Positions 1,524-30,490 of a stretch of DNA of 32,000 nucleotides are shown in pieces. The notes below the pieces were generated by a model. That model was given only the letters and a program-made list of their open reading frames with translations. It was not told where the DNA came from and did no database searches. The translations under genes and the position numbers were made by a program. Numbering within the stretch: position 1 is the stretch's first letter; each line of letters begins with the position of its first letter. This stretch comes from an uncultured bacterium (GTDB lineage Bacteria; Auribacterota; JACPWU01): the NCBI GenBank assembly GCA_964640155.1, contig CAZXEQ010000001.1, positions 60,001 through 92,000 of the forward strand, in the 5' to 3' direction.

Positions 1524-2001
1524 AATATTTTTTGAGAATATTTTCTTGCATCAACCACATCTTTTCATATTGCTTCGGCTGATGGTCTCGATATCCTAAA
1601 AGATGTAAAGTCCCATGAACAATGTATCGTGCGACTTCTTCTCTAAATCTTGAATCAAATATTTTTGCTTGTGCTTTGGCTCTTTCAACTGACACGATGA
1701 CTTCACCCAACATCCATCGTCCATTCATCATTTCTTCCATAGGAAATGCTAACACATCTGTCGCTATATTTTGAGCATGAAACTTTTGATTTAAACGCTT
1801 GATAACTCGATCTGAAACAAGAGAAATATGAAGTTCAATGGGGACTTTTTTACGAAGTCTGACCTTTTTCAAAATAATTTTAGCTAAAGCTTGAATTTTA
1901 TTTTTTCGAAAAGATCCGAAAGAACGATTATCAACCTCTACAAAAGAAACCTCATAAGATTTTTTATGTTGCGGCAAGATCTTCAAATCCTTGAGAAGCA
2001 T
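1510..2001 (-). CDS. ybeY: Endoribonuclease YbeY (rRNA maturation factor)
   Basis: 163 aa with the zinc motif HGTLHLLGYRDH (HxxxHxxxxxH). Sits in the phoH-ybeY-dgkA arrangement. The annotated ATG overlaps the phoH 3' end by 38 nt; in-frame TTG codons nearer the phoH stop are alternative starts. Confidence 0.9.
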   Translation of the reverse strand: MLLKDLKILPQHKKSYEVSFVEVDNRSFGSFRKNKIQALAKIILKKVRLRKKVPIELHISLVSDRVIKRLNQKFHAQNIATDVLAFPMEEMMNGRWMLGEVIVSVERAKAQAKIFDSRFREEVARYIVHGTLHLLGYRDHQPKQYEKMWLMQENILKKYYDGI

Positions 2002-3022
2002 CTATTTGATAGGAGGATTTATTTGATTTCCTTGCAGAACCACGCTTGTCTGCCTTAGAAGACGAATGAGGAGAACGATCTTTTTCATAAGCACGAATGA
2101 TCTTTTTAACCAATTCATGACGCACTACATCTTTGTCTGTAAATTTCATAATTTTAATACCGCGCACATCTTGCAAAATTGCTTTTGCGTGAGAAAGGCC
2201 TGAAAGCTTATGCGCAGGTAAATCAACTTGAGTAACATCTCCTGTGATCACTGCTTTAGAATTAAAACCCAAACGCGTCAAAAACATTTTCATTTGTTCA
2301 ACGGTGCTATTTTGAGCTTCATCCAGAACAATAAATGAATCGTTGAGTGTTCGACCTCTCATATAAGCTAAAGGAGCAACTTCGATCAAGCCACGATCAA
2401 TATAGCGCTGAATTTTATCCATTTCGACCATATCATAAAGGGCATCATAAAGAGGTCTTAAATAAGGATTAATTTTTTCATATAAATCTCCAGGCAAGAA
2501 TCCAAGGCTTTCCCCTGCTTCAACAGCAGGTCGAGTCAAAATCACACGCTTTACTTTATCGTCTAAAAGCCAAGAGACGGCCATGGCCATAGCCAAATAA
2601 GTCTTTCCTGTGCCGGCAGGACCAATTCCAAAAACAACATCGTATTTTCGAATCGCTTCAATGTACTCAGCCTGATTGCCAGATTTAGGATAAATCAAAC
2701 TTTTACGAGAAGAAACGCGTATAGCATCTGTCGGAACCTGATCCGAAAACTCTTCAGACCGATCTCCATTGGAAGCAGATAAAGCATGAATAATGTCTGC
2801 ACGATCAATGGCTTTCCCAGACTCTTGCAATCTGGTTAATTCTTCAAAAAGCTTTCTTGCTTTTTTAATACTCTCTTGATCCCCAATCATCTTAATAAAG
2901 TCGCCGCGTGACACGACCTTAACCTTGAGAGCTTTTCCGATAATTTCTAAATTTTCATCATCATGAGCAAAAAGAGACCTTGCCATGCGTGCATCTTTTA
3001 AATGAATCGTTTCTTTTGGCAC
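1964..3022 (-). CDS. phoH: PhoH-like ATPase
   Basis: 352 aa with Walker A GPAGTGKTYLAMA and the Walker B-like FIVLDEAQN. GTG start preceded by GAGGTG with a 5-nt spacer. Confidence 0.9.
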   Translation of the reverse strand: MPKETIHLKDARMARSLFAHDDENLEIIGKALKVKVVSRGDFIKMIGDQESIKKARKLFEELTRLQESGKAIDRADIIHALSASNGDRSEEFSDQVPTDAIRVSSRKSLIYPKSGNQAEYIEAIRKYDVVFGIGPAGTGKTYLAMAMAVSWLLDDKVKRVILTRPAVEAGESLGFLPGDLYEKINPYLRPLYDALYDMVEMDKIQRYIDRGLIEVAPLAYMRGRTLNDSFIVLDEAQNSTVEQMKMFLTRLGFNSKAVITGDVTQVDLPAHKLSGLSHAKAILQDVRGIKIMKFTDKDVVRHELVKKIIRAYEKDRSPHSSSKADKRGSARKSNKSSYQIDASQGFEDLAAT

Positions 3023-3075
3023 TTCATCACCTCGCGAAATAATTTTAACGCAAATTTATCTAAGAACCAAAGAAA

Positions 3076-4401
3076 TTATTTTTTCTTCGATAAAAATTGT
3101 GACAACTGGGGTGTCATTTTTTTAGAAACTTCAACCTCAAGAAAAGTGCCATTCTCATCATATTTTTTAGAAATGACACGCCCATGACGATGTAATAAAG
3201 ACAGCCAATCTCCTTCTTGATGGGGAATGAAAATATGCAGCACCTCTAAATGTTCCTGCAAGTGCTCCTTAATTTTCGCTCTTAATTCTTCTAAACCTTG
3301 TCCAGACTTGGCAGAAGCAAAAATGATTTCAGTCTCATCTTTTAAACAATGAGGAATTGTAGGAGACCCCCCAACTCGATCAACTTTATTTAAAACAAGA
3401 ATATGTTCCACATCTTCTGCATGTAAATCTTTTAAAACTTGAGCTACCACTTCATATTTTTCTTCAACCAAATGATCACTTAAATCCAAAACATGAATCA
3501 AAAGATCCGCATGGGTCACTTCTTGTAATGTTGTTTTGAATGATTCCACCAAATGATGTGGAAGTTTTCGAATAAATCCGACCGTATCGGACAAAAGAAA
3601 TCCTCTACATTCCGGAAATTGAATTTTTCTGACTGTAGAATCTAATGTTGCAAAAAGTCTATCCTCTGCTAAGTTTTCACTCTCAGTCAGACGATTGAAT
3701 AAGGTTGTTTTGCCTGCATTGGTATAACCTACAATGGCCACCAGCGGCCATTCATGGCGTTCTCTATTTTTCTTCTGAACTTTATGTTCGGTTTCGATAT
3801 CACGAAGCTCTTGAGTTAATTTCATAATTCTAGTCCTTAACCGACGTCGATCTACTTCTAATTGTTTCTCTCCAGGACCTCGTGAGCCGATACCTCCATC
3901 TTGTCGAGATAAATGAGTCCATTGATGGGTAAGACGAGGCAACAAATACTTTAACTGGGCAAGTTCTACTTGAAGCTGAGATTGTTTAGTGAATGCTCTG
4001 CGGGCAAAAATATCTAAAATGAGTTGAGTGCGATCAATGACACGCACTTTAAAATTTTCATTTAAATTTCTAGACTGGACTGGGCTTAAATCATCATCAA
4101 AAATAACAACTTGTACTTCGCTTTCTTGCGCCTTTGCTGCAAGTTCCTCCAGCTTTCCCTTGCCAATAAAAGTAGCCGGATGGGGTTTTGTCAGTTTAAC
4201 AATGGTTTGATGAGTGACTTTTGCTTTTGCAGTTGAAACAAGCTGAGCCAACTCTTCTAAAGAATTCTCAACATCCCACGCTCTTGACCGTCCCCAATCG
4301 ACACCAATTAAAAAAGCTTTTTCGGGTCCTTGAATCACATGTTTAAGCGGCAAGGCAAACTCCTGACAGGAACGAAGACAGTCATCAGTGATAAGTCGCA
4401 A
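3076..4401 (-). CDS. hflX: GTPase HflX
   Basis: Contains the HflX N-domain (GKGKLEEL, LILDIFARRA, QVELAQLKYLLPRL), a G1 box GYTNAGKTTLFN, DTVGF and NKVD. The maximal ORF begins with TTG at 4401. A better-supported start is the TTG at 4353, which is preceded by AGGAG (4360-4364) with a 6-nt spacer. Confidence 0.9.
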   Translation of the reverse strand: MRLITDDCLRSCQEFALPLKHVIQGPEKAFLIGVDWGRSRAWDVENSLEELAQLVSTAKAKVTHQTIVKLTKPHPATFIGKGKLEELAAKAQESEVQVVIFDDDLSPVQSRNLNENFKVRVIDRTQLILDIFARRAFTKQSQLQVELAQLKYLLPRLTHQWTHLSRQDGGIGSRGPGEKQLEVDRRRLRTRIMKLTQELRDIETEHKVQKKNRERHEWPLVAIVGYTNAGKTTLFNRLTESENLAEDRLFATLDSTVRKIQFPECRGFLLSDTVGFIRKLPHHLVESFKTTLQEVTHADLLIHVLDLSDHLVEEKYEVVAQVLKDLHAEDVEHILVLNKVDRVGGSPTIPHCLKDETEIIFASAKSGQGLEELRAKIKEHLQEHLEVLHIFIPHQEGDWLSLLHRHGRVISKKYDENGTFLEVEVSKKMTPQLSQFLSKKK

Positions 4402-20086: not shown

Positions 20087-20296
20087 ATGAAACCTTGCTG
20101 CGGAAAAGAAATCAAACGTTCTATCAAGAAACATCGGGATGTAGCTACCTGCGATCAATGTAAGTCCCTCATTTTGGCTTACGGAGATGAAGCAGACTTT
20201 CAAAAAATGCTTCAGGGATTGGAAAAAAGCAAAATCTCTTTTGAAACTGGAGTTTCTGGCAAGTTAAAAATTGTTATCAAGCATTTAGTTAAATAA
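20087..20296 (+). CDS. Small hypothetical protein (69 aa) with CC...CxxC cysteines
   Basis: The ORF starts 6 nt after the AKR stop. Cys residues lie at positions 4, 5, 22 and 25 (CDQC), so metal binding is possible. No strong SD and no family recognised. Confidence 0.45.
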   Translation: MKPCCGKEIKRSIKKHRDVATCDQCKSLILAYGDEADFQKMLQGLEKSKISFETGVSGKLKIVIKHLVK

Positions 20297-20307
20297 ACAA
20301 AAATGAA

Positions 20308-23300
20308 TCAAGCTGCAGCATTAAAAGACTCCGATCTTTCTACAATCACTTGTTTTCTTTGAACATTGGGCAACTCTCTCAGCGACTTTTGCCCTCTATC
20401 AATCTGTCTTTTCCTTGAACGTCGTATTTGTGTACCAACAGCTTCTTCTCTTTCTCCCAATTCACGAGCAATACGATTGACCCATCCTTGAAAAATCTCC
20501 TCTTCGAAAGGTTTTTCCTCTTCACTCATTTGATCGAGGCTCTCAGCAATTCTCATAATCGCTAATTCTAATTTTCCTTCTCGGAAAAGTTTTTCCACTT
20601 CGGCTTCTAAAGTCACTGTTGCTAAATCCTGTTGCTGTTGCCTTTGTCTTAGTGCTACCAAGCCAAAAACAATGGTTAAAGCTGGAGGTAGAATCATTCT
20701 TCTTGGCGCACCGCTATCAGACACTGTAAGACGAATATCTGGCGCATTATAATACCTGGTTCCGATTGAGTTATCTCCTGTAGAAGAAGCCTCTACGGCT
20801 CCTGGAACAGAAGGCAAAGCTAAAAGCCCTATCACTCTTTCATAAAGACTACCTGTCCATCGTCGGACCTCTAAGACTTCACCCCTCTCATCCCTAACAT
20901 TTGGATGTAGAGAAATAGCATCTCTTAAGGCCACCAATGCTATTAAAAAATCTCTTCGAACAATCACCTGATTCCCTGATAACTGTACATCCTCTAAATC
21001 CAGACTGTCAGAGAAAACCAAGCGTCCCTCACGATAAAGGGTCAATATTTGAGTTTTTCTTTCAGGGGAAAGATAACGCCCCCAAAATTCTATTAAATAA
21101 TGATCTACAACATCGATATGAGAAGGTTCTGAAGCCTGATACTCAGAACTAGAAATATAAAAATCGCCGGCTCTCCAATGTGCAATTCGCTGCTGACGCG
21201 CAACATCAGCCACCCCTTGCAACCTCTCTCTTGTAATGATGTCTGATGACAATTGAATAAATCTTAAAATTTCATAAGGTTTTAAAGCCAAATAATTTGC
21301 AACTTGTACTCTTTGTTCTATTTGTTCATACGTTTCTTGGAATGTTGAGTTAGATGGAAAAGTACATTGCCCAAACAAAAGCCTAATAGGCTCTAAAAGT
21401 ACATTTAACTCTCTTTGCGTTCTGTCTCTAACCTTTTGTATTTGATCTGCAGGTAAGTCCTGTCCCAAATCCAAAAAGGTTCTCTCCTCTTCAATAACCT
21501 GTCTTGCAGTTTGAAGCAAAGCTGTAAAAACACGTTCAATCGGTCGATGACCCAAGACCTCTTGTTGACCACTATTTTGATCGAAAGGAGCTCTTTCGGA
21601 ATAAATCCTTTGAAGATTCATTCTCGAAAAAGCTATTTCAGGAGTGATAAGCTCACTTACATCTCCTTTCCCCCTAACAAAACTAGCTTCGGAAACAATC
21701 ATTTCACTCAGAGCAATCATAATATCTGTTTCACCAATGCCCATTTGACGTAACGCTTGAAGATAATTTTCTGTATCAAAACCCTGAGCAGGAATAATCT
21801 CTAAAGCAATCGGCATAAGGATTGCTAGAAGCTCAGCTCTTGTTTCCAGAAAATCCTGCCAATGCAAAATGAGATAAATAGAAAACACCCGAAAAGCGTT
21901 TTCTTGACCCAAAATCTGACGGATTTCTTGAGGTGTTTTTTCTCCCAAATCTCCAAAAACTTGGTCAAAAACATAATTTCTAAAATGAAAAGAACCATAC
22001 AAACTTGCAGAAACAAAAATTTGAAGCTTAAGGTTCACCGATAAACTTGGAAAAATTTCTTGAATGATTCTTTCCAATCTTTCTCTTGTTGCTGCATCTA
22101 AAGAAAGGTTTAGAGCCTGCGATATTAATGAAATATAAAAAGCCTTTTCATTATCACTAAGACTACCTCTTCGAATAGACACTTCTGCCTCCGTTAAGAT
22201 TTGAGTAACAGCTTCTTGTGATGCAAACCCTCCTAATCCCATAGCTAGATTTAAAAGATTTTGAGCAGCTGAGCGATAATAACTATCGTGATAGCTCACG
22301 GGTGTATACGGAATATCTATATTGCAAAGTCGAACGGGATGATACCGACGTTGATAACGCTGAAAAAGAGCTCTTATTTGTGTTAAATCTCCAGAGGCAA
22401 TCACTCTGCGGGCATGAAACAGCTCAATATTACTCAAACCTGTCGAGATCTCACCGAATTCACGCATCACTGTCTGAGGGTCGTCAGAACGAGCAGCCCA
22501 TATACCCGGCAAAGTTATTTGTCTTACAGGATGATTCTGTAAATATTCTAAAAATCTTTCCCCCACTTCATAAAAATTGTCACTGGGGATAGCGGCTTGA
22601 TGATATAGTCCAAACACTTTTAAAAGAAAATCCAATTCAGAAGAAGCCCCATGATCCCTTAATTCCTGATCAATATTTCTAAAATCAGGGTCCATTGCTA
22701 AAATATCCTCAGCAATCATCACCGATAGAACTGGGATCAGCACGCTTTCAACAGCATCAACTACTCCTGCCCTGTAAAAAAAATTTTGATAAAAAGCCAA
22801 TGCCTCTATAATATTTTGAGGTCTTAGATTTCTGCGCTCTTCTCGAACGAGATCTACCACAAAAGACCGTGCAGCTACTTTAGCTTCTTCTGAAATCGGA
22901 GCTCTATTTACCTCAAATAAAAAACTCTGAAAACGACTCATTTGAACTCTTAAATTATCCCCTTGTCCAGAATCTGTTCGTCGAGACATAGACAGAAAAA
23001 TCCTTCGAGTATCATCAAAATATCTCTGCCGTTTTTGAGGATCCGCCAAAAGCCTCATAGGTAACCGCATCAAATCACCTTCAAGACTATCCCTTCGCAT
23101 CACTGCAAGAAGCCGCTCTTGAATAGGAATATCAGTTAATGGACCATTCACTTGTTGTTGAATCACTTGAACACGTGGCCTTCCCATCAAAGGGCGAACA
23201 TGTTGATTCATAAATAAAACCCAAGGGTCGTTGGTCGTAACCACTCCATTCAATTGAAGATAATTGAGAAAACTTCCATTGAATCCAATAATGCTTTGTC

Positions 23301-26300
23301 GTGGTTCATCTGGTGTATATCCACGGTCTGGAGTGAAGGATGGGTTACGACGATGCCATTCCTGCGCAATCACTTCATTACTTCCCCAAATTAAAAGCCC
23401 TAAACCTTGTCGGAGTTGTTCTGCATGAGGTGAGGCTGGAACACGAGCAGGATCCGCAAAAACATAATACCAATCATCAGGATACTGAGCTTGCAATCGA
23501 ATAAGTTCTTGAAAAAAATAGCGCTGCCGAGAAAAAAAATTTAAGAAGCTGCCCATCATCCGAAGCTCCTCCGAAGTAAAAGAAGATAAATCTCCAAAAT
23601 GAAGCGGAGCATAAATGTTATTTAAATATTCTGCCGTAATTATTGCTGGAGTAGGATCATAATTACCTCCATACCCTCCTCTGGATCTCGCCCTAGCTAC
23701 CTGTGCTTGATATTGAGCTTGAGGACTATCTTCTCTTCTCCAGCGATCTTCTATCCCCTCTAGTTGAATCCACAAAGTAGACCTTTGAACAGGTGTCAAT
23801 CCTTGTGAAAATTGATCAAATGCCGTGTTTGCAATTTCTTGGTTTAAACCCCAGCGTCTGCTTTCTCGAATCAAATAAGCTCTAAACGCATCTCCATTTC
23901 CAACATCCACGACTTTTCCATCCGCAAGCTTTTGAGCTGCCATCAAAGCCACACGTCCAAACAAGTCATGAATCATTCTTTCATTTTCTTCTCCCAAAGC
24001 GCCAATATCAGTTAAAAGACCTAAAGCAACATCATTGACCATTTGAAACATATCCTCTATAAGTCGAAAATCAATGGTTCTATCTACATTTTCATAAGCT
24101 CCCACAGCTCTTGAAGCAATTTCCAGTTTCTGAGATATATAAATATCTGTTCTTCTCAACAAAGTCCTCAAAGAATAGATTTGCCTTAAATCTTCTGGAT
24201 AATCTGAATCTGAATAAAGAGGGGCTTGGTTAGAAGATTCATTCGATTGCCCTGCTGTTCTATCTGGCCTGGCGGCTTGGTCTCTTTCGTGATGTTGTCG
24301 AATTACACTTTCCTGAAAAACTTGTAAGCGTCGATCTCCTTGTCGAACAAATGTGGTAGGATCCCTGTTCACCCATCCGCGCCCTCCTCTAGGATTCATG
24401 GTTTGACAAATAGCATGAAGCTCTGAAATATCAATCCAGCGACTGCTATTCACATCAATTGCCCCATGAACAAGTCGGGCTGGAATTCCTACATATCTTA
24501 AAAGAAGCATTTCATACATCGCTAAAACAGCACAAGCAGCTTTGATCTTCTTCCTGCGCCTAAAAGATTCTTCTTCAAACCCATGATCCAACCAATGTTC
24601 AGGAGGAACTGCAAACATTCGTGCAGCATCTTCATCCAACCCATATTCAAATCGATCTTGCATAATTTGCTCTACACCTGTGAGTCGAAGGTCATAATCG
24701 TCCAACATTCTCAAAGCATCGAGCCGAGCTCTTAAGGTCGGAGGAATGTTTCTTTCACTCTCAGGAAGTTGTGTATAGTGGGCTATAAATTCTGATGAAG
24801 GGGTAAAAGGTACCGGTTGAAACTCATCGAGATGATAAGAAACAATATTATATCCTACGGGAAGATGAAAACCTTGTAAACGCAAAGTAGCATCTCCGTA
24901 AGAATTTGGCACGAGATTAAATCCTTCTGTTCGACCATTGACACGAATACTTGAAGGGTCAACACGAGAATGAGATGTTCTAAAAAGGCTTATTTCTGAG
25001 CCCTGAAAATACATAGTCACTGTCACTCCCTCACCCATTCTTGTTTCAGATAAGGGAGCATCTGGGAAATCAAGTACTTCCTGAACAACTGCTCCATTAG
25101 AATGAACACTCGAATAAGTCCCCAAAGAATAAAATCCTCCGCCTCGACTCAATTGAGCCAACCAGACGCCTCTCTCACGCAAACGTCCATTTTCAAAAGC
25201 ACTGTCCGGTTCTGACAATGTATTAGGTCTAAATTCTCTCATTCCAGAAAGCGTTTGAAGATAACGCGCCCCTCTTTCCACATTATGAAAAAATAAAGAA
25301 GCTCTTCTAGAAACTCCAGCCATCATCTCTAATCTTCTAAAACCTCTCACAAAAGAAGGAACCCAAAAAAGTGTTTGGGCTGGAACTGTTTCTACGGTTT
25401 GACGAAGACGAACGCTTGACTGAGCAACAGATGCAGCTTGATCTCTGATCACATGAACAATGGTTTCAGAATGAAGTCCAAAACTTGAAAATACGATATA
25501 TAAAACAATCCCCCATCTTAATATCCTAAAAATAAGCCTTTCTTTTAAAGAAGTTAAAAAGCTAACCCAAGGTCTGGCTACAGTTGTTTTAGATTCTTTA
25601 ATTTCAAATTTTTCTAAGATTGCTTTTTCTTCAGTCTGTACAGGAGGCGCTTTTAAGGTTTCCAATGTCTTTTGACTTTGATCTAACAGAACTTTGTGAA
25701 TTTTGGTTTCAAGATCTTCTAATTCTCCAATAACATCTCTTGATCGGTAAGATTCTAATCTTTCAATTTTCTTCTTTCTTTGATTCATTTGTCCTACTTT
25801 TTCTTTCAATTGATCTAGCTCTTCTGCCAACCTTCTTTCCTCCAAAGCATCACGCTCAATTGAAAAAGAATTGCTTCTAATTTTTTCAAGTAGGTTTTTT
25901 TTCAGTTCTTCTGCGCTTCCTTCACCCTCAATTAATCCTTCTGCATTTTCTTCAATTCCAATCAACCTTTGATATTTCTGATGTAATTGAACATTTTCTC
26001 TTTCCTTACGAGCAATATCCACCCGTATCTTTTCTAAATCCCCCTCTAGTTTTTTTTGCTTCAATAACAGGTCTTCGACTCTTGCCTCTCCGAATATATT
26101 TTGCAGCTCTTCTTTTAATCGAATTATTTCTCCTTCAAAACGCCAAGGAGGTGCATCTCTTGGCGTTTGAGTCATGGTAACTTCTGAAGTAGGAAGCAGA
26201 CTTTGAATATGTTCAGTCCTTCGATAGATTCGATCATTTCGAAGCGTTCCTTTCTCCTTCTCTCTCAAACGTAATTCCAGTACATCTGCGAGAAAAATTC

Positions 26301-29300
26301 CTGCTTCCTTTTGAGTTTCAGGATTTAAAGTTGGGAAAATCTCTACTAATTCTTGAGCAATTAAAATTAAAGGAACAACTTCAACCTCACCATTTTCATA
26401 AATACGCTGCATATCATATCCATTCACAACAACTCTTATGAGTGGAGATTCTTTTTGAGAATCAATAATTTTAAGTCCCTTGGCCAAAAGCTTTCTTAAA
26501 CTAAACGTAAGAAGCGAATCCTCAACTTGTTTTGATTGAGTCTTTTCTTCAAATGCAATTCCATGTTCTTGAGGTCCCGTTCGAAGAAGAGCTATCAGAA
26601 ACTCTAGAGTCTGTTCTTCCAAAGTTTCTCCCTGTACATCCTTTCGAGACAGGCCAAATGTTTTTTCTCCAGAAACGTTTTTGGGAAAAGCAAATTGAAG
26701 AAAATTTTTCAAATCAAGAGGAACGGTATAAATCTCATAAATAGAAGAGCTTTTTTTTCCTTCAGCAATATCATAAGCCTCTTGAATGGTTCTTTCCGCT
26801 TGATGATAGCGAGAACGCCCCTTAATAACATGCCGACTTCCTAGCGAAATAAATTCAAATACAACTCCGGGAAAATCATTTGTTATTCGAATATCTATAG
26901 ATTCTATACCTGCAACACTGATCTGATAGTGGATCAAGAAATAAGCCAGACGCAAGGACTGTAAATATTGATCCAAAGCCTGAATCTTTTTGAACAGGTC
27001 ATTTTTAGTCTTATCATTCGCGCTTATTGACAAATTCTGAAGTTTTTTTCGAATTATTAAGATTTTTAAGATTTCAGAAGGATAATCAATATTCTGAGCA
27101 GTTAAACTTCTGGCCCCCTCTTTTAGAAAAATAGAATCAACACCTATTTCATCTAATGAAATTTTTTCTTTCGTGGCACTTTTATACGAAATTAATAAAT
27201 TCTCTGAAGAACTCTGTCCGTCTTCAGAATCATCATCTAAAACAACTCTTTCTCGAAGAAAAACAGCCTCAGTCGATTTTAGATTTGACGACTTGCCTCT
27301 GACAACTTGAGCTACCTGCCCCTTCTGATTTCGTTTCAAGAAAAAAATATTCTTTCCCTCCCATACATCTAAAGGATTTCGTGAAATCTTCGGACTGACA
27401 ATCACAGCGGGGGAAAACAGATTATAGGAGGCTAAAAATGATACCAACTGTTCTTCTTGAGCTGTCAGCGCGCTTAAACTTTCAAAAGGATTTAAGGATA
27501 TTTCTGTTTGATCCTCAGAAATAGGCACAGATAATGTTTTTTCCTCTTCTATTTCTAAAGCTCTTTGTCTTCTTAGATTTTTAAATTTTACAAAGAGAGT
27601 TTTTCCTGTTTTTTTAAGAGTTGACCCAACCCATTTAAAAATAACAAAAACATTAAATAGAACAAAGGGAGCAATCAATAAAGTTAAAAAAGGCAAACCT
27701 AAATAGATAGAAAGAAGAGAAGCAGCATTTAAAACAATATAAAAATCTACAGCAAAACCAACCATCTTTTGTACTTTTTTAGGCAATTTTCGATAAAGGG
27801 GTGTTAAAAAAAATTCAGAAGCAATTCCCAGAAGAACAAGGGTTAATGCAGCACTCATTGTAAAATGAGCTCCGATGAGGCAAATAAAAACAACAAAAGG
27901 AAGAACAAGATAATACAAAAGCGTTTGGCTAACTCTACCTAAAATATGAAAGGCTCGACGCAAAAATCCTTTTTTTACCTCTTCCTTCTCAGTCTTCTTA
28001 AAATACCACCGACCAAATTTGACAATACCTGACTCTTCACCCCAGCGTCTGGCCACAGCTGCCACAACTAAACGCCCTGCTGTTTTCATATTTGGATTAA
28101 ATCGATCCCATTGCAAGGTGCAGTTTTTATGTTTAGAAATGACTTCCACCAAAATTCTTCCTTCTTTATCATCTAAATCTCTTAGTATATCCCTATGTTT
28201 CTTAAACCATCGATTGACGATTTGATGTACTGTTTTTTGATCGGCCTTACTTAAAACATCGATCAATTCTTTAAGCAATGGCTTTAATATATGCCCTTCA
28301 TCCAATTCCAACTGCTCATGAATTTCTCGCTCCATCGCACTCACTGGAGAAAGCATTTTTTTGATAGGATCAGAACTCGGTCGTAGCAAAAGTCTATCTT
28401 TGGAGAACTCTTCCCCATGAATCTCATCCCATTGTGTTTTCATCACAAAGTCGTAACGTTTAAATCCCAACTCCCCACGAATTTCAGGCGTACAAGCAAT
28501 ATAAGAAATCTTTTTCTTCTCCAAAATTTTCTGAATACCCTCGGTATGAAAACCTCCGGTGATCAACACAGTCACCGGTCCCCTGTCTCCAGTCTCCAGC
28601 AAATCACTATTTTGGGTTTTCTGACTAGGAACTCGCGACTGACGACTGGTGACCATTAACGCTTTTTCAGCCATCACTTCATCACGTTTCAGAGCAAACT
28701 CATAAAATTTTAGAGCTTCTCTCATGCAATCATCAAATTGATGAATTATTTGAGAATTCTCTAGATTTAAATCTTGTACATTATATTTTTGAGATAAAGC
28801 CTGCATCGTTATTGCTCTTGATTGCGTATTTTTAAATCCTTTTAATCCAGTTGTTTCTAACTCTCTTCGCGTCAACTCCAAACGAATTAATTTCTTAAAA
28901 ATCTTCCATGTTTCATCAAAATCAGCAATGTCTTCTACTTTCTCCAATCTTGCCTGTTCATAAAGAAATCCTTGAACAAAAGATATTAATTCATTCCACA
29001 AAACATCAAAATCAAACTTCTTCTCTTTTTGGCTAATGCTAAGCCACGTTTGTAATTGAGGATATTCCTTCTGGAATAAATCTTTTTGAACACTATTTTC
29101 TTTTTCATAATTCTGTTTTAATTGAGCCAAGTATTCATCTGCCTTAATATGACCTAATCGATATTCCAATGTTATTTTCACAATTTCTTTGAATGCATTA
29201 GGCGATAATCTTGTCTGAAGATCTTTGATAAGTTGATCTAATTGTGTTTGTGCCTCCTTAGAATCAAATGCATTGGTTTCCTGAAAAAAAGTCAGAAAAT

Positions 29301-30048
29301 CTTTCAAACTCGAGGTTTTAGCTAAAAGATGGGGGTGAGATTTAAAAATAAATTCTAATTCTTTCACCCATTCTTGCCATTTCGGAGAGTTTGAGTGTAA
29401 AGATTTGGAAAACTGATCTATTCTTTTTAAATCACTTGAGTAAGCTTTGTCTTTCAAACTCTGAAGCCAAGCATCAATCGCTGACACACCTTCTTTTAAA
29501 CTCTCTGCATATTTTCGACAAAGATGAAACGCTTTAAAATTTTCAGAATAAAGATGGGGCTCCTCAACTCCATAAAGAGAAGTTTCGTTTTTAAGTCCCA
29601 TCACAATCTTAGAAAACTCTGCTCCTGTAAGAAGCCCTTGCCTAAGAAATTTTCGTGCTACTTGCGTCCTCGCGTCTTTATCTGGGAAAATTTCATAAAG
29701 AAGAGTTTGTACGGGTCCAGATGCCCCCTCCACTAAAACCTGATCAAGTAAATTCTCACGGGCAAGCTGCTCTAATGTAATTGCAATCCTCTCCTGAGCC
29801 TGTGCCTGACAATGAATATCTCTGATAAGGACCCAAAGTACAGGCCCTTTCCCATTAAAAACCTTATTGATTTTCATACCTCTCAAAGCAAGAGAATCAG
29901 GCGAAATCTCTGCTATTGGAACAATACGAATCTGGGCAGATGGAATTAGATCTGCTTTCGCATGGGAAAACGACTCAAGATTCAAAGAATCTAGACCGAT
30001 GAAACACGAGAGGACTATGGCTATTAATTTGACAATGATTTTTCTCAA
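20308..30048 (-). CDS. Giant (3,246 aa) multi-pass membrane protein with a transglutaminase-like Cys-His-Asp core; most of its length matches no family I recognise
   Basis: A single 9,741-nt ORF with a TTG start at 30048. The N-terminus MRKIIVKLIAIVLSCFIGLDSLNLESFSHAKA looks like a signal peptide. Hydrophobic blocks lie at aa 709-808, 1505-1525 and 3118-3133. A coiled coil spans aa ~1309-1485. The TGase-like signature is at aa 1839-1898. The antisense ORFs in the track are short and unsupported. Confidence 0.85.
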   Translation of the reverse strand: MRKIIVKLIAIVLSCFIGLDSLNLESFSHAKADLIPSAQIRIVPIAEISPDSLALRGMKINKVFNGKGPVLWVLIRDIHCQAQAQERIAITLEQLARENLLDQVLVEGASGPVQTLLYEIFPDKDARTQVARKFLRQGLLTGAEFSKIVMGLKNETSLYGVEEPHLYSENFKAFHLCRKYAESLKEGVSAIDAWLQSLKDKAYSSDLKRIDQFSKSLHSNSPKWQEWVKELEFIFKSHPHLLAKTSSLKDFLTFFQETNAFDSKEAQTQLDQLIKDLQTRLSPNAFKEIVKITLEYRLGHIKADEYLAQLKQNYEKENSVQKDLFQKEYPQLQTWLSISQKEKKFDFDVLWNELISFVQGFLYEQARLEKVEDIADFDETWKIFKKLIRLELTRRELETTGLKGFKNTQSRAITMQALSQKYNVQDLNLENSQIIHQFDDCMREALKFYEFALKRDEVMAEKALMVTSRQSRVPSQKTQNSDLLETGDRGPVTVLITGGFHTEGIQKILEKKKISYIACTPEIRGELGFKRYDFVMKTQWDEIHGEEFSKDRLLLRPSSDPIKKMLSPVSAMEREIHEQLELDEGHILKPLLKELIDVLSKADQKTVHQIVNRWFKKHRDILRDLDDKEGRILVEVISKHKNCTLQWDRFNPNMKTAGRLVVAAVARRWGEESGIVKFGRWYFKKTEKEEVKKGFLRRAFHILGRVSQTLLYYLVLPFVVFICLIGAHFTMSAALTLVLLGIASEFFLTPLYRKLPKKVQKMVGFAVDFYIVLNAASLLSIYLGLPFLTLLIAPFVLFNVFVIFKWVGSTLKKTGKTLFVKFKNLRRQRALEIEEEKTLSVPISEDQTEISLNPFESLSALTAQEEQLVSFLASYNLFSPAVIVSPKISRNPLDVWEGKNIFFLKRNQKGQVAQVVRGKSSNLKSTEAVFLRERVVLDDDSEDGQSSSENLLISYKSATKEKISLDEIGVDSIFLKEGARSLTAQNIDYPSEILKILIIRKKLQNLSISANDKTKNDLFKKIQALDQYLQSLRLAYFLIHYQISVAGIESIDIRITNDFPGVVFEFISLGSRHVIKGRSRYHQAERTIQEAYDIAEGKKSSSIYEIYTVPLDLKNFLQFAFPKNVSGEKTFGLSRKDVQGETLEEQTLEFLIALLRTGPQEHGIAFEEKTQSKQVEDSLLTFSLRKLLAKGLKIIDSQKESPLIRVVVNGYDMQRIYENGEVEVVPLILIAQELVEIFPTLNPETQKEAGIFLADVLELRLREKEKGTLRNDRIYRRTEHIQSLLPTSEVTMTQTPRDAPPWRFEGEIIRLKEELQNIFGEARVEDLLLKQKKLEGDLEKIRVDIARKERENVQLHQKYQRLIGIEENAEGLIEGEGSAEELKKNLLEKIRSNSFSIERDALEERRLAEELDQLKEKVGQMNQRKKKIERLESYRSRDVIGELEDLETKIHKVLLDQSQKTLETLKAPPVQTEEKAILEKFEIKESKTTVARPWVSFLTSLKERLIFRILRWGIVLYIVFSSFGLHSETIVHVIRDQAASVAQSSVRLRQTVETVPAQTLFWVPSFVRGFRRLEMMAGVSRRASLFFHNVERGARYLQTLSGMREFRPNTLSEPDSAFENGRLRERGVWLAQLSRGGGFYSLGTYSSVHSNGAVVQEVLDFPDAPLSETRMGEGVTVTMYFQGSEISLFRTSHSRVDPSSIRVNGRTEGFNLVPNSYGDATLRLQGFHLPVGYNIVSYHLDEFQPVPFTPSSEFIAHYTQLPESERNIPPTLRARLDALRMLDDYDLRLTGVEQIMQDRFEYGLDEDAARMFAVPPEHWLDHGFEEESFRRRKKIKAACAVLAMYEMLLLRYVGIPARLVHGAIDVNSSRWIDISELHAICQTMNPRGGRGWVNRDPTTFVRQGDRRLQVFQESVIRQHHERDQAARPDRTAGQSNESSNQAPLYSDSDYPEDLRQIYSLRTLLRRTDIYISQKLEIASRAVGAYENVDRTIDFRLIEDMFQMVNDVALGLLTDIGALGEENERMIHDLFGRVALMAAQKLADGKVVDVGNGDAFRAYLIRESRRWGLNQEIANTAFDQFSQGLTPVQRSTLWIQLEGIEDRWRREDSPQAQYQAQVARARSRGGYGGNYDPTPAIITAEYLNNIYAPLHFGDLSSFTSEELRMMGSFLNFFSRQRYFFQELIRLQAQYPDDWYYVFADPARVPASPHAEQLRQGLGLLIWGSNEVIAQEWHRRNPSFTPDRGYTPDEPRQSIIGFNGSFLNYLQLNGVVTTNDPWVLFMNQHVRPLMGRPRVQVIQQQVNGPLTDIPIQERLLAVMRRDSLEGDLMRLPMRLLADPQKRQRYFDDTRRIFLSMSRRTDSGQGDNLRVQMSRFQSFLFEVNRAPISEEAKVAARSFVVDLVREERRNLRPQNIIEALAFYQNFFYRAGVVDAVESVLIPVLSVMIAEDILAMDPDFRNIDQELRDHGASSELDFLLKVFGLYHQAAIPSDNFYEVGERFLEYLQNHPVRQITLPGIWAARSDDPQTVMREFGEISTGLSNIELFHARRVIASGDLTQIRALFQRYQRRYHPVRLCNIDIPYTPVSYHDSYYRSAAQNLLNLAMGLGGFASQEAVTQILTEAEVSIRRGSLSDNEKAFYISLISQALNLSLDAATRERLERIIQEIFPSLSVNLKLQIFVSASLYGSFHFRNYVFDQVFGDLGEKTPQEIRQILGQENAFRVFSIYLILHWQDFLETRAELLAILMPIALEIIPAQGFDTENYLQALRQMGIGETDIMIALSEMIVSEASFVRGKGDVSELITPEIAFSRMNLQRIYSERAPFDQNSGQQEVLGHRPIERVFTALLQTARQVIEEERTFLDLGQDLPADQIQKVRDRTQRELNVLLEPIRLLFGQCTFPSNSTFQETYEQIEQRVQVANYLALKPYEILRFIQLSSDIITRERLQGVADVARQQRIAHWRAGDFYISSSEYQASEPSHIDVVDHYLIEFWGRYLSPERKTQILTLYREGRLVFSDSLDLEDVQLSGNQVIVRRDFLIALVALRDAISLHPNVRDERGEVLEVRRWTGSLYERVIGLLALPSVPGAVEASSTGDNSIGTRYYNAPDIRLTVSDSGAPRRMILPPALTIVFGLVALRQRQQQQDLATVTLEAEVEKLFREGKLELAIMRIAESLDQMSEEEKPFEEEIFQGWVNRIARELGEREEAVGTQIRRSRKRQIDRGQKSLRELPNVQRKQVIVERSESFNAAA
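20650..20697 (-). other. C-terminal hydrophobic helix (aa 3118-3133) followed by a 113-aa charged tail
   Basis: MILPPALTIVFGLVAL followed by RQRQQQQ. It is short for a TM helix (16 aa), so this call is borderline. Confidence 0.45.
24350..25070 (-). other. Transglutaminase-like (papain-fold) domain with a Cys1839-His1878-Asp1896 triad
   Basis: KAACAVLAMYEMLLLRYVGIPARLVHG (Cys codon 24532-24534). SELHAICQT (His codon 24415-24417). GRGWVNRDPTT (Asp codon 24361-24363). This matches the canonical G-x-C-x-x-f-A...lR-x-x-GIPAR-x-V-x-G...HAW...GW-x-x-x-DPT pattern. A beta-rich region precedes it (VTVTMYFQGSEISLF...ATLRLQG). Confidence 0.75.
25474..25536 (-). other. Single TM helix (aa 1505-1525) separating the two compositional halves of the giant protein
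   Basis: LIFRILRWGIVLYIVFSSFGL. The N-flank is basic (LKERLIFRILR), suggesting an N-in/C-out orientation. Confidence 0.6.
25595..26125 (-). other. Coiled-coil segment (aa ~1309-1485) of the giant protein
   Basis: Heptad-like, E/K/L/Q-rich sequence: LKEELQNIFGEARVEDLLLKQKKLEGDLEKIRVDIARKERENVQLHQKYQRL ... LDQLKEKVGQMNQRKKKIERLESY ... EDLETKIHKVLLDQSQKTLETLK. Confidence 0.6.
27625..27924 (-). other. Two bilobed hydrophobic blocks (about 4 TM helices), aa 709-808 of the giant protein
   Basis: Block 1 is TLLYYLVLPFVVFICLIGAHFTMSAALTLVLLGIASEFFLTPLY. The basic loop RKLPKKVQK follows. Block 2 is MVGFAVDFYIVLNAASLLSIYLGLPFLTLLIAPFVLFNVFVIFKWV. Both outer flanks are strongly basic. Confidence 0.7.
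29953..30048 (-). other. Signal-peptide-like N-terminus of the giant protein
   Basis: It shows the three signal-peptide regions: n-region MRKIIVK, h-region LIAIVLSCFIGL, and a c-region ending AKA-D (AxA-like). Confidence 0.55.
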
Positions 30049-30253: not shown

Positions 30254-30490
30254 ATGACAATACGAGTGAGAGAAGAAAACCATGAAGTAAAGCATGTCTT
30301 GATCGAATTATCAGAAGCGGTTAGTACATTTTCCGTCGAGGTCGAACCAGGACTTATCTATCATTACGACGAACAGCTGAACCCTACACAAATTGAGGTT
30401 AAAGATACAGCTCTAATTGAACCTTTTCTTAAAGGTTTACAGGAAGTTCTTAAAGATCCAAACGTCAAAATCATTCGTAAAGCTGCTTAA
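30254..30490 (+). CDS. DUF2283-like small protein (78 aa)
   Basis: Strong SD (GAGGTG). The pattern VLIELSEAVSTFSVEVEPGLIYHYDEQLNPTQIEV resembles the DUF2283 consensus (ALYIxLSxxxxxxSEEVxPGVIxDYDExGxxxGIEI). Confidence 0.55.
   Translation: MTIRVREENHEVKHVLIELSEAVSTFSVEVEPGLIYHYDEQLNPTQIEVKDTALIEPFLKGLQEVLKDPNVKIIRKAA

Follow-up and report, generated by a model that had tools for sequence, protein, structure and literature searches.

What could lead half of a giant bacterial protein to lose almost all of its lysines while its arginines are kept? This question is raised by a gene located in a 32,000-nucleotide stretch of the genome of an uncultured bacterium (assembly GCA_964640155.1, contig CAZXEQ010000001.1, positions 60,001 to 92,000), hereafter called the window, which was considered at its full length. 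The gene lies on the minus strand at positions 20308-30048 and comprises 3,246 codons plus the stop, with a TTG start, and its product is best explained as a giant protein anchored in the membrane of a Candidatus Auribacterota bacterium. An earlier note, made from the DNA letters alone, had described in this protein a lysine desert confined between two membrane helices, and had proposed self-crosslinking avoidance, evasion of host ubiquitination or resistance to lysine-specific proteases as its causes. The present analysis indicates that the desert is very probably real, conserved and selected, and the candidate cause preferred here, with a probability of roughly 0.3, is self-protection of the protein from its own lysine-directed activity.

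The counts given previously were reproduced, and the pattern proved even stronger than had been described. Sixteen lysines occur in the 1,592 residues from 1526 to 3117 (nt 20698-25473), and none across the 330 residues 1503-1832 (nt 24553-25542). The N-terminal part is lysine-rich, with 138 Lys in 1,502 residues (9.2%), and lysine returns in the C-terminal tail (residues 3134-3246, nt 20311-20649, minus strand), which holds 6 Lys in 113 residues. The abundance of arginine in the desert was also borne out, at 9.8% versus 5.7% in the N-terminal part. The limits of the desert were obtained by a maximum-likelihood fit with two change points on the lysine positions alone, which was blind to hydrophobicity. 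The fitted segment, residues 1503-3152 (nt 20593-25542, minus strand), contains 16 lysines (0.97%) and 162 arginines in 1,650 residues. In the 20 neighbouring genes (6,730 aa), which represent the local background, lysine and arginine account for 7.8% and 5.7%, and at the former frequency the binomial probability of finding 16 or fewer lysines in 1,650 residues is 7e-38. The lysine-free stretches of 330, 293, 157 and 154 residues make this segment a lysine desert as defined by Szulc et al. 2023, that is, a lysine-free stretch of at least 150 residues or the absence of lysine over at least 50% of the sequence; the low-lysine block corresponds to 51% of the protein, though it is not strictly lysine-free. 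The longest lysine-free run in any other open reading frame (ORF) of the window and of the ortholog locus described below has 92 residues, except for one of 129 residues in the polytopic MlaE.

Composition does not account for this pattern. The GC content at third codon positions (GC3) is 0.269 in the lysine-rich and 0.264 in the lysine-poor half of the gene, and the 18 residue types other than Lys and Arg occur at ordinary frequencies, with no depletion of Asn, Ile and other residues encoded by A-rich codons. The equal GC3 and the normal frequencies of the other residues exclude mutational or GC bias, low complexity and a recent transfer from a high-GC donor. An origin of the desert in GC content or horizontal gene transfer was ruled out on these grounds and by an ortholog which keeps the desert at a different GC.

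This ortholog, P0002 (3,696 aa), was found by a word-index search of 5.8 billion protein clusters with the whole protein. Among the 52 matches, it was the only further protein that could be aligned over the full length and the only one that matched the C-terminal half. The alignment begins at codon 1 of the giant gene; P0001, the identical NCBI copy of the window protein, is annotated from codon 22. The two loci are syntenic (RadA, IspD, IspF, small ORF, giant gene, small ORF, aldo-keto reductase), and the genes neighbouring P0002 contain 7.5% Lys. Between the homologous hydrophobic segments, P0002 holds 16 lysines in 1,939 residues (0.83%), with a lysine-free run of up to 429 residues, compared with 8.5% Lys before the desert and 6.6% in the 286-residue tail after it. 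Blind segmentation placed its desert at residues 1471-3420, from the homolog of the fifth transmembrane (TM) helix, TM5, to 10 residues past RMILPPALSIFVGLMA. It had been asked whether homologues keep the lysine-poor segment independently of GC, and P0002 does so in a locus of 44% GC.

The two proteins are 43% identical in both halves. At the columns that differ between the orthologs, the share of lysine falls from 8.3% in the N-terminal part to 1.6% in the desert (Fisher p = 5e-21). Since lysine has been kept out of variable columns in both lineages, the desert is not merely inherited but is maintained in this lineage by selection that is still acting. Only two desert lysines, K1974 (nt 24127-24129) and K2040 (nt 23929-23931), which delimit the span 23929-24129 on the minus strand, are conserved with P0002. 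Arginine constitutes 11.8% of the invariant desert columns, against 5.7% in the N-terminal part. No further desert orthologs were found in GTDB genomes or in two JGI metagenome scans.

A more distant relative indicates how the desert may have arisen. An exhaustive HMMER search with residues 1503-2700 against 1.84 billion representatives retrieved P0002 and P0056 only. P0056 has 4,029 residues, is encoded in a locus of 41% GC next to a MoxR-DUF58-VWA operon, and is homologous to the window protein at residues 973-1339 (middle region), 1555-2047 (catalytic region) and 2389-2893 (C-terminal region). The homology to P0056 thus extends into the lysine-rich middle region (residues 811-1502, nt 25543-27618, minus strand; 63 Lys), and no gene-fusion seam lies at the border where the lysine-poor part begins. 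P0056 itself has a normal lysine content, which makes the desert a lineage-specific feature that the fold does not need. Neither hydrophobic boundary of the desert has a counterpart in P0056, whose lysines are most often aligned with arginines of the window protein (in 10 of 21 and 6 of 32 cases for the two long segments); K2040 is conserved in P0056 too. From these alignments it was concluded that the desert is a derived, lineage-specific state, reached largely by lysine-to-arginine replacement, and that it arose together with the two hydrophobic segments. A codon test of this origin, in which the share of AGR codons was compared between arginines aligned to P0056 lysines and other arginines, gave no signal, which suggests that the replacement is too old. 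It had been proposed beforehand that a homologue with a lysine-normal equivalent of the segment would imply drift or GC bias rather than selection; P0056 is such a homologue, but the drift or GC-bias conclusion attached to it is excluded by GC3, the ortholog and the variable columns.

A profile search with the three sequences retrieved only HEAT/transglutaminase giants from high-GC genomes. Two transglutaminase giants, P0057 and P0059, are lysine-poor, yet they are uninformative, because they come from genomes of 59-63% GC in which the neighbouring genes are equally lysine-poor. MoxR (AAA_3) and DUF58 genes adjoin P0056, P0057 and P0059 (L083 16019-20374; L084 20615-23680; L085 23818-26383), VWA/BatA-type genes being adjacent only in the case of P0056, and the window protein and P0002 do not have a MoxR/DUF58 neighbourhood.

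The sole recognisable domain of the desert module is a transglutaminase-like core (PF01841), matched by a hidden Markov model at residues 1836-1897 (nt 24358-24543, minus strand), in agreement with the embedded transglutaminase-type enzyme that had been proposed. The region alone scored 23.5 bits (gathering cutoff 23), compared with 30 for P0002 and 37 for P0056; within the whole window protein the match was borderline, at 20.4 bits, and the assignment is carried by the homologs. Cys1839 (nt 24532-24534), His1878 (nt 24415-24417) and Asp1896 (nt 24361-24363) are invariant in the three-sequence alignment. The Cys-His-Asp triad is thus complete in the transglutaminase-like domain of the module. 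The depletion of lysine is most severe in the ~1,100 residues around this catalytic domain. Residues 1833-1836 (nt 24541-24552), just before the catalytic Cys, hold a cluster of three of the 16 lysines of the desert (RRRKKIKAAC), and this cluster is missing in P0002 (QRGEILTANC) and reduced to one Lys in P0056 (DQREKITAQC). No Pfam family other than PF01841 matched the whole protein at E <= 0.1, the remaining ~1,200 residues of the module matched nothing in Pfam, NCBIfam or the sequences of the PDB, and a search of PDB sequences with the desert profile returned nothing. The long C-terminal part of the module looks helical by eye.

The position of the desert boundaries relative to the membrane was also considered. 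The fitted desert starts 2 residues before the helix TM5 (residues 1505-1523, nt 25480-25536, minus strand; LIFRILRWGIVLYIVFSSF), which is flanked by basic residues on its N-terminal side and acidic residues on its C-terminal side. It ends 19 residues after a conserved, Arg-flanked hydrophobic segment (residues 3118-3133, nt 20650-20697, minus strand; MILPPALTIVFGLVAL), of which ~12 of 16 residues are identical to P0002 in the pairwise alignment. A crude insertion-energy scan accepted the N-terminal helix, four helices at residues 705-810 and residues 1505-1523. Thus, the description of the desert as bounded by two TM helices holds at its start, where the helix was accepted, and is only plausible at its end. 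The motif of the last segment, RMILPPAL(T/S)I..GL.A, is Arg-flanked and near-identical in both orthologs within poorly conserved surroundings, the homologous segment of P0002 being residues 3395-3410 (about 20183-20230 of the ortholog locus, L001). This segment is too short and proline-rich for a standard TM helix; its layout of motif, hydrophobic run and basic residues is like that of a C-terminal sorting signal, yet 113-286 residues follow it.

Two hydrophobic stretches of 48 residues at residues 705-810 (nt 27619-27936, minus strand) were read as two helical hairpins comprising four TM helices, and all loops flanking and connecting them are strongly rich in Lys and Arg. As four helices separate the N-terminal domain from the middle region, both would lie on the same side of the membrane; as TM5 follows the middle region, the desert would lie on the opposite side. 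The tail would return to the first side if the last hydrophobic segment does span the membrane. By hand count, Lys and Arg in the TM flanks number 21 on the side shared by the N-terminal domain, middle region and tail, as against 4 on that of the desert. A periplasmic desert is slightly favoured over a cytoplasmic one because of this positive-inside count and the analogy with TgpA, a membrane-bound transglutaminase of Pseudomonas aeruginosa that is compared below. However, a cytoplasmic desert would follow from the signal-peptide-like N-terminus of both orthologs and the textbook signal peptides of homologs of the N-terminal domain. These signal peptides conflict with the positive-inside rule, and no single consistent topology emerged. 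Regardless of its side, the constraint is not one shared by exported proteins at large. Nearby exported proteins are lysine-normal (LptD, 5.9%; MlaD, 7.3%; LysM-YkuD, 7.1%), as are cytoplasmic neighbours, which argues that the constraint is specific to this protein and to one membrane side. The compartment-specific constraint suggested in the earlier note was in this way largely supported, since the depletion is sharply bounded and its boundaries are conserved.

How could these observations be connected? Transglutaminases transfer the acyl group of a glutamine to the epsilon-amine of a lysine. The part of the protein that extends from TM5 to the last hydrophobic segment has been purged of lysine, which was partly replaced by arginine. 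In the mechanism proposed here, this module would stand opposite the lysine-rich parts via TM5, most likely facing the periplasm as in TgpA. On this side, the epsilon-amino group of lysine would be the acceptor in a covalent reaction, and the most economical candidate for this reaction may be acyl transfer by the module's own transglutaminase-type site. A polypeptide tethered in cis would be present at a very high local concentration and would be prone to self-crosslinking or derivatisation. With its acceptor lysines removed and its glutamines kept (Gln makes up 6.3% of the module), the enzyme could act on other proteins or amines but not on itself. Deserts in lysine-directed ligases are known to have evolved by lysine-to-arginine replacement (PMC10665810, PMC10169902). 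A more ambitious version is doubtful, namely that the protein is a bacterial counterpart of the E3-ligase desert: a membrane-anchored transglutaminase-type enzyme whose ~1,600 residues on its own side were stripped of lysine, and which could thus acylate amines or other proteins of the envelope, or crosslink the latter, while sparing itself.

Avoidance of self-crosslinking, already listed among the candidates of the earlier note, remains the best of them and is weakened by P0056, in which the same triad occurs with normal lysine. P0056 contains 5.7% Lys in its desert-homologous segments (~1,000 residues) and 7.7% elsewhere, which indicates that the transglutaminase-like domain alone does not demand a desert, and self-protection would be compatible with it only if the enzyme worked exclusively in the compartment to which TM5 leads. 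For comparison, the TG2 of eukaryotes is silent in the cytosol and active outside. Several further points weigh against self-protection and the topology it implies. Many members of PF01841 are proteases, deamidases or inactive proteins, and the AlphaFold2 model of the catalytic region, built from a two-sequence alignment, was unusable, with a predicted local distance difference test score (pLDDT) of 39.5. The signal-like N-terminus and the canonical signal peptides of the homologs argue that the lysine-rich parts, instead of the desert, are exported. At the boundaries, residues 3118-3133, 16 residues with two prolines, were not accepted as a TM helix in the insertion-energy scan, and TM5 of P0002 was only marginal. 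Finally, only two independent sequences bear the desert, and the evidence base is thin, consisting of two orthologs and one out-group.

Instead of the protein's own activity, something met outside may have purged the lysines if the module lies open to the periplasm or on the surface of the cell, such as lysine-specific endopeptidases of competitors or predators, lysine-reactive electrophiles, or peptidoglycan tethering by L,D-transpeptidases. The desert boundaries coincide with hydrophobic segments in both orthologs, and P0056, which does not have those segments, is lysine-normal despite its intact triad, as would fit a constraint set by location; moreover, a LysM-YkuD transpeptidase gene is found 6 kb from the ortholog. 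However, other proteins that the same organisms export or that reside in their periplasm contain 5.9-7.3% Lys, arginine is kept and even raised, so that trypsin-like attack is not avoided, and the lysine-specific protease or other hazard is itself still hypothetical, which makes this a possible but clearly improbable cause. A requirement for arginine rather than an avoidance of lysine is rated somewhat lower still. In this case the guanidinium groups of the module would bind an anionic polymer (peptidoglycan, lipopolysaccharide, polyphosphate, nucleic acid or lipid head groups), for which lysine would be a poorer ligand. The rise of arginine to 9.8%, its share of the invariant desert columns and its place as the most frequent partner of P0056 lysines in the alignment would be expected from such binding, but the total of basic residues is lower in the module (10.8% vs 14.9%), its net charge is -31, and the near-total exclusion of lysine at variable, presumably non-binding positions is left unexplained.

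The module might also evade lysine-directed tagging, either by ubiquitin, if it reaches a eukaryotic cytosol, or by a bacterial ubiquitin- or Pup-like conjugation, if it is cytoplasmic. Lysine-poor toxin A chains and deserts linked to pupylation are documented (PMC10665810), and the signal-peptide reading of the N-terminus would put the desert in the cytoplasm. This is very improbable on several counts. Auribacterota are described as free-living fermenters (PMC9324843), and the nearest genome, with a GltX 97% identical, is an environmental metagenome-assembled genome labelled Candidatus Auribacterota; the gene has housekeeping neighbours, and neither a secretion nor a translocation apparatus was seen in the window; hydrophobic segments anchor the module at both ends; genes for Pup/PafA and ubiquitin-like conjugation are absent from the 32 kb window and the 31 kb ortholog locus; and the cytoplasmic neighbours are lysine-rich. 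For the host-ubiquitin version put forward earlier, the lifestyle of the phylum, the housekeeping neighbours and the lack of a delivery apparatus in the window make evasion in a eukaryotic host unlikely, and nothing observed here speaks for it. The desert could, at last, have no function and be a compositional relic of a high-GC, lysine-poor donor module, of a local mutational bias or of low complexity, as might be suggested by the lysine-poor, multi-transglutaminase giants P0057 and P0059 and by the tolerance of the fold for normal lysine in P0056. Nevertheless, GC3 does not differ between the desert, the remainder of the gene and its neighbours, no fusion joint lies at the boundary with the N-terminal part, the frequencies of the other 18 residue types are ordinary, and lysine is excluded at variable sites after 57% divergence in AT-rich genomes, in which a single transition converts AGR into AAR codons. 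This explanation, by far the least probable, is effectively refuted by GC3, the ortholog and the variable columns.

The remaining parts of the protein are of a different nature. A signal-peptide-like N-terminus (residues 1-26, nt 29971-30048, minus strand), with the pattern RK..K and a hydrophobic core of 12 residues, is followed in both orthologs by an AxA motif (residues 31-33, nt 29950-29958, minus strand) directly preceding DLIP. The lysine-rich N-terminal domain (residues 27-640, nt 28129-29970, minus strand) is common to ~50 giant proteins: 50 of the 52 whole-protein matches were giants of 1,800-5,300 residues from Omnitrophota, Elusimicrobia and Auribacterota, which share only their N-terminal ~520-620 residues with the window protein, at 21-32% identity. 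H79, Q85, E107, R455 and GGFH 498-501 are invariant in this domain. Its AlphaFold2 model was good (pLDDT 78), with no significant PDB match. Weak hints of a relation to the Tiki/ChaN/erythromycin-esterase superfamily come from PF04187 in 2 of 19 members (E = 0.02) and, likewise, from Foldseek matches to 3b55/2rad at E ~1. Many of the homologs of this domain (P0003-P0046) begin with a canonical Sec signal peptide and yet contain embedded enzymes usually found in the cytoplasm, such as phosphoglycerate kinase, phosphomannomutase, GAPDH/TIM, FBP aldolase, PGI, glycogen phosphorylase/synthase and PPDK. Further along the window protein, the middle region is Glu/Lys-rich and, judged by eye, coiled-coil-like at about residues 1300-1500.

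The window is a stretch of bacterial chromosome with 37% GC, whose genes are nearly all housekeeping genes on the minus strand, and the neighbours of the giant gene encode tRNA synthetases, LptD, IspD/IspF, HflX, PhoH, YbeY and thymidylate kinase. Two small ORFs on the opposite strand flank the giant gene, at 20087-20296 and 30254-30490 (plus strand), one of 69 residues, rich in Cys and Lys, and the other of 78 residues. The ortholog locus has ORFs of 70 and 78 residues that match them in size, position and strand. In the same locus, a HepT/MNT toxin-antitoxin pair (L001 21376-22204), absent from the window, lies between the small ORF and the aldo-keto reductase gene, and a McsA-like UVR protein, the protein-arginine kinase McsB and ClpC are encoded at L001 1-3913, 6 kb from the arginine-rich ortholog. 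The McsA/McsB/ClpC system, which directs degradation through arginine phosphorylation, is best known from Firmicutes.

Lysine deserts, lysine-poor toxin chains and TgpA-type periplasmic transglutaminases are established. In the literature searched, no desert was found that combines a low-GC bacterium, such a length, an ordered-looking sequence, limits at membrane segments and a transglutaminase-like domain. The description of Auribacterota (PMC9324843) mentions neither giant proteins nor transglutaminase, preprints on Omnitrophota giant proteins contained nothing relevant on lysine or transglutaminase, and a literature search on transglutaminase self-crosslinking gave nothing relevant. The eukaryotic-ubiquitin, pupylation and toxin-chain frameworks by which deserts are usually interpreted do not apply here. 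The desert has been held by selection through 57% sequence divergence in an otherwise lysine-rich genome of 37% GC. If self-protection is its cause, a desert would provide a sequence-only signature for active crosslinking enzymes in uncultivated bacteria, and arginine-to-lysine revertants are predicted to crosslink themselves in a Cys1839-dependent manner. If the cause is another, the desert would still mark the face with which a giant envelope protein meets a lysine-specific hazard, in a phylum of whose envelope biology very little is known.

Among known systems, the giants of Omnitrophota, Elusimicrobia and Planctomycetes-Verrucomicrobia-Chlamydiae (PVC) bacteria, e.g., the 'Archaeovorins', resemble the window protein in their signal-like N-terminus and in the TM helices placed after the N-terminal domain, whereas the giants that share this domain have neither the transglutaminase module nor a lysine desert. 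The A chains of AB toxins (ricin A, cholera A1, pertussis S1) show the same selective loss of lysine in one part with arginine kept, which has been interpreted as an escape from lysine-directed tagging. However, these chains have 200-300 residues and are delivered to the eukaryotic cytosol by retrotranslocation from the endoplasmic reticulum, while the window protein has no B moiety and no host, its module is anchored at both ends, and it is encoded in a housekeeping neighbourhood with no secretion system by a member of a phylum described as free-living.

A likeness in layout is found in TgpA (PA2873) of P. aeruginosa, in which five TM helices are followed by a periplasmic transglutaminase domain, active in vitro, and by a sixth TM helix (PMC3507681). 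The window protein has a similar order of five TM helices, a large loop with the PF01841 triad, a hydrophobic segment that is not a confident TM helix, and a tail. Its loop is, however, four times longer than that of TgpA, it carries an extra lysine-rich N-terminal part of 1,500 residues, the MoxR-DUF58 neighbours are absent, and no match to DUF3488 (PF11992) or DUF4129 of the TgpA family was found in it. No depletion of lysine has been reported in TgpA, and the proteins of P. aeruginosa are poor in lysine in general.

The deserts of the ubiquitin-proteasome system (San1, Slx5, VHL, SOCS1, HUWE1/EEL-1) and of proteomes that use pupylation share with the present one lysine-free stretches of at least 150 residues, evolutionary conservation and an origin by lysine-to-arginine replacement. 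In contrast to them, the organism is a low-GC bacterium (37%), with ubiquitin and Pup not in view, and no Pup, PafA or Dop gene occurs in the window or L001; the desert is a sequence of 1,650 residues which is apparently ordered, not disordered, and delimited by hydrophobic segments; and the candidate chemistry is transglutaminase-type instead of E3-type. The logic proposed for the ubiquitin-related deserts is that a protein standing beside a lysine-directed conjugation removes its own acceptor sites (PMC10665810, PMC10169902). Should the window protein prove to be a bacterial counterpart of the E3 deserts, it would amount to a machine, so far undescribed, by which Auribacterota crosslink proteins in their cell envelope, and the removal of own acceptors would be a general answer to lysine-directed transferases, reached independently in bacteria and eukaryotes.

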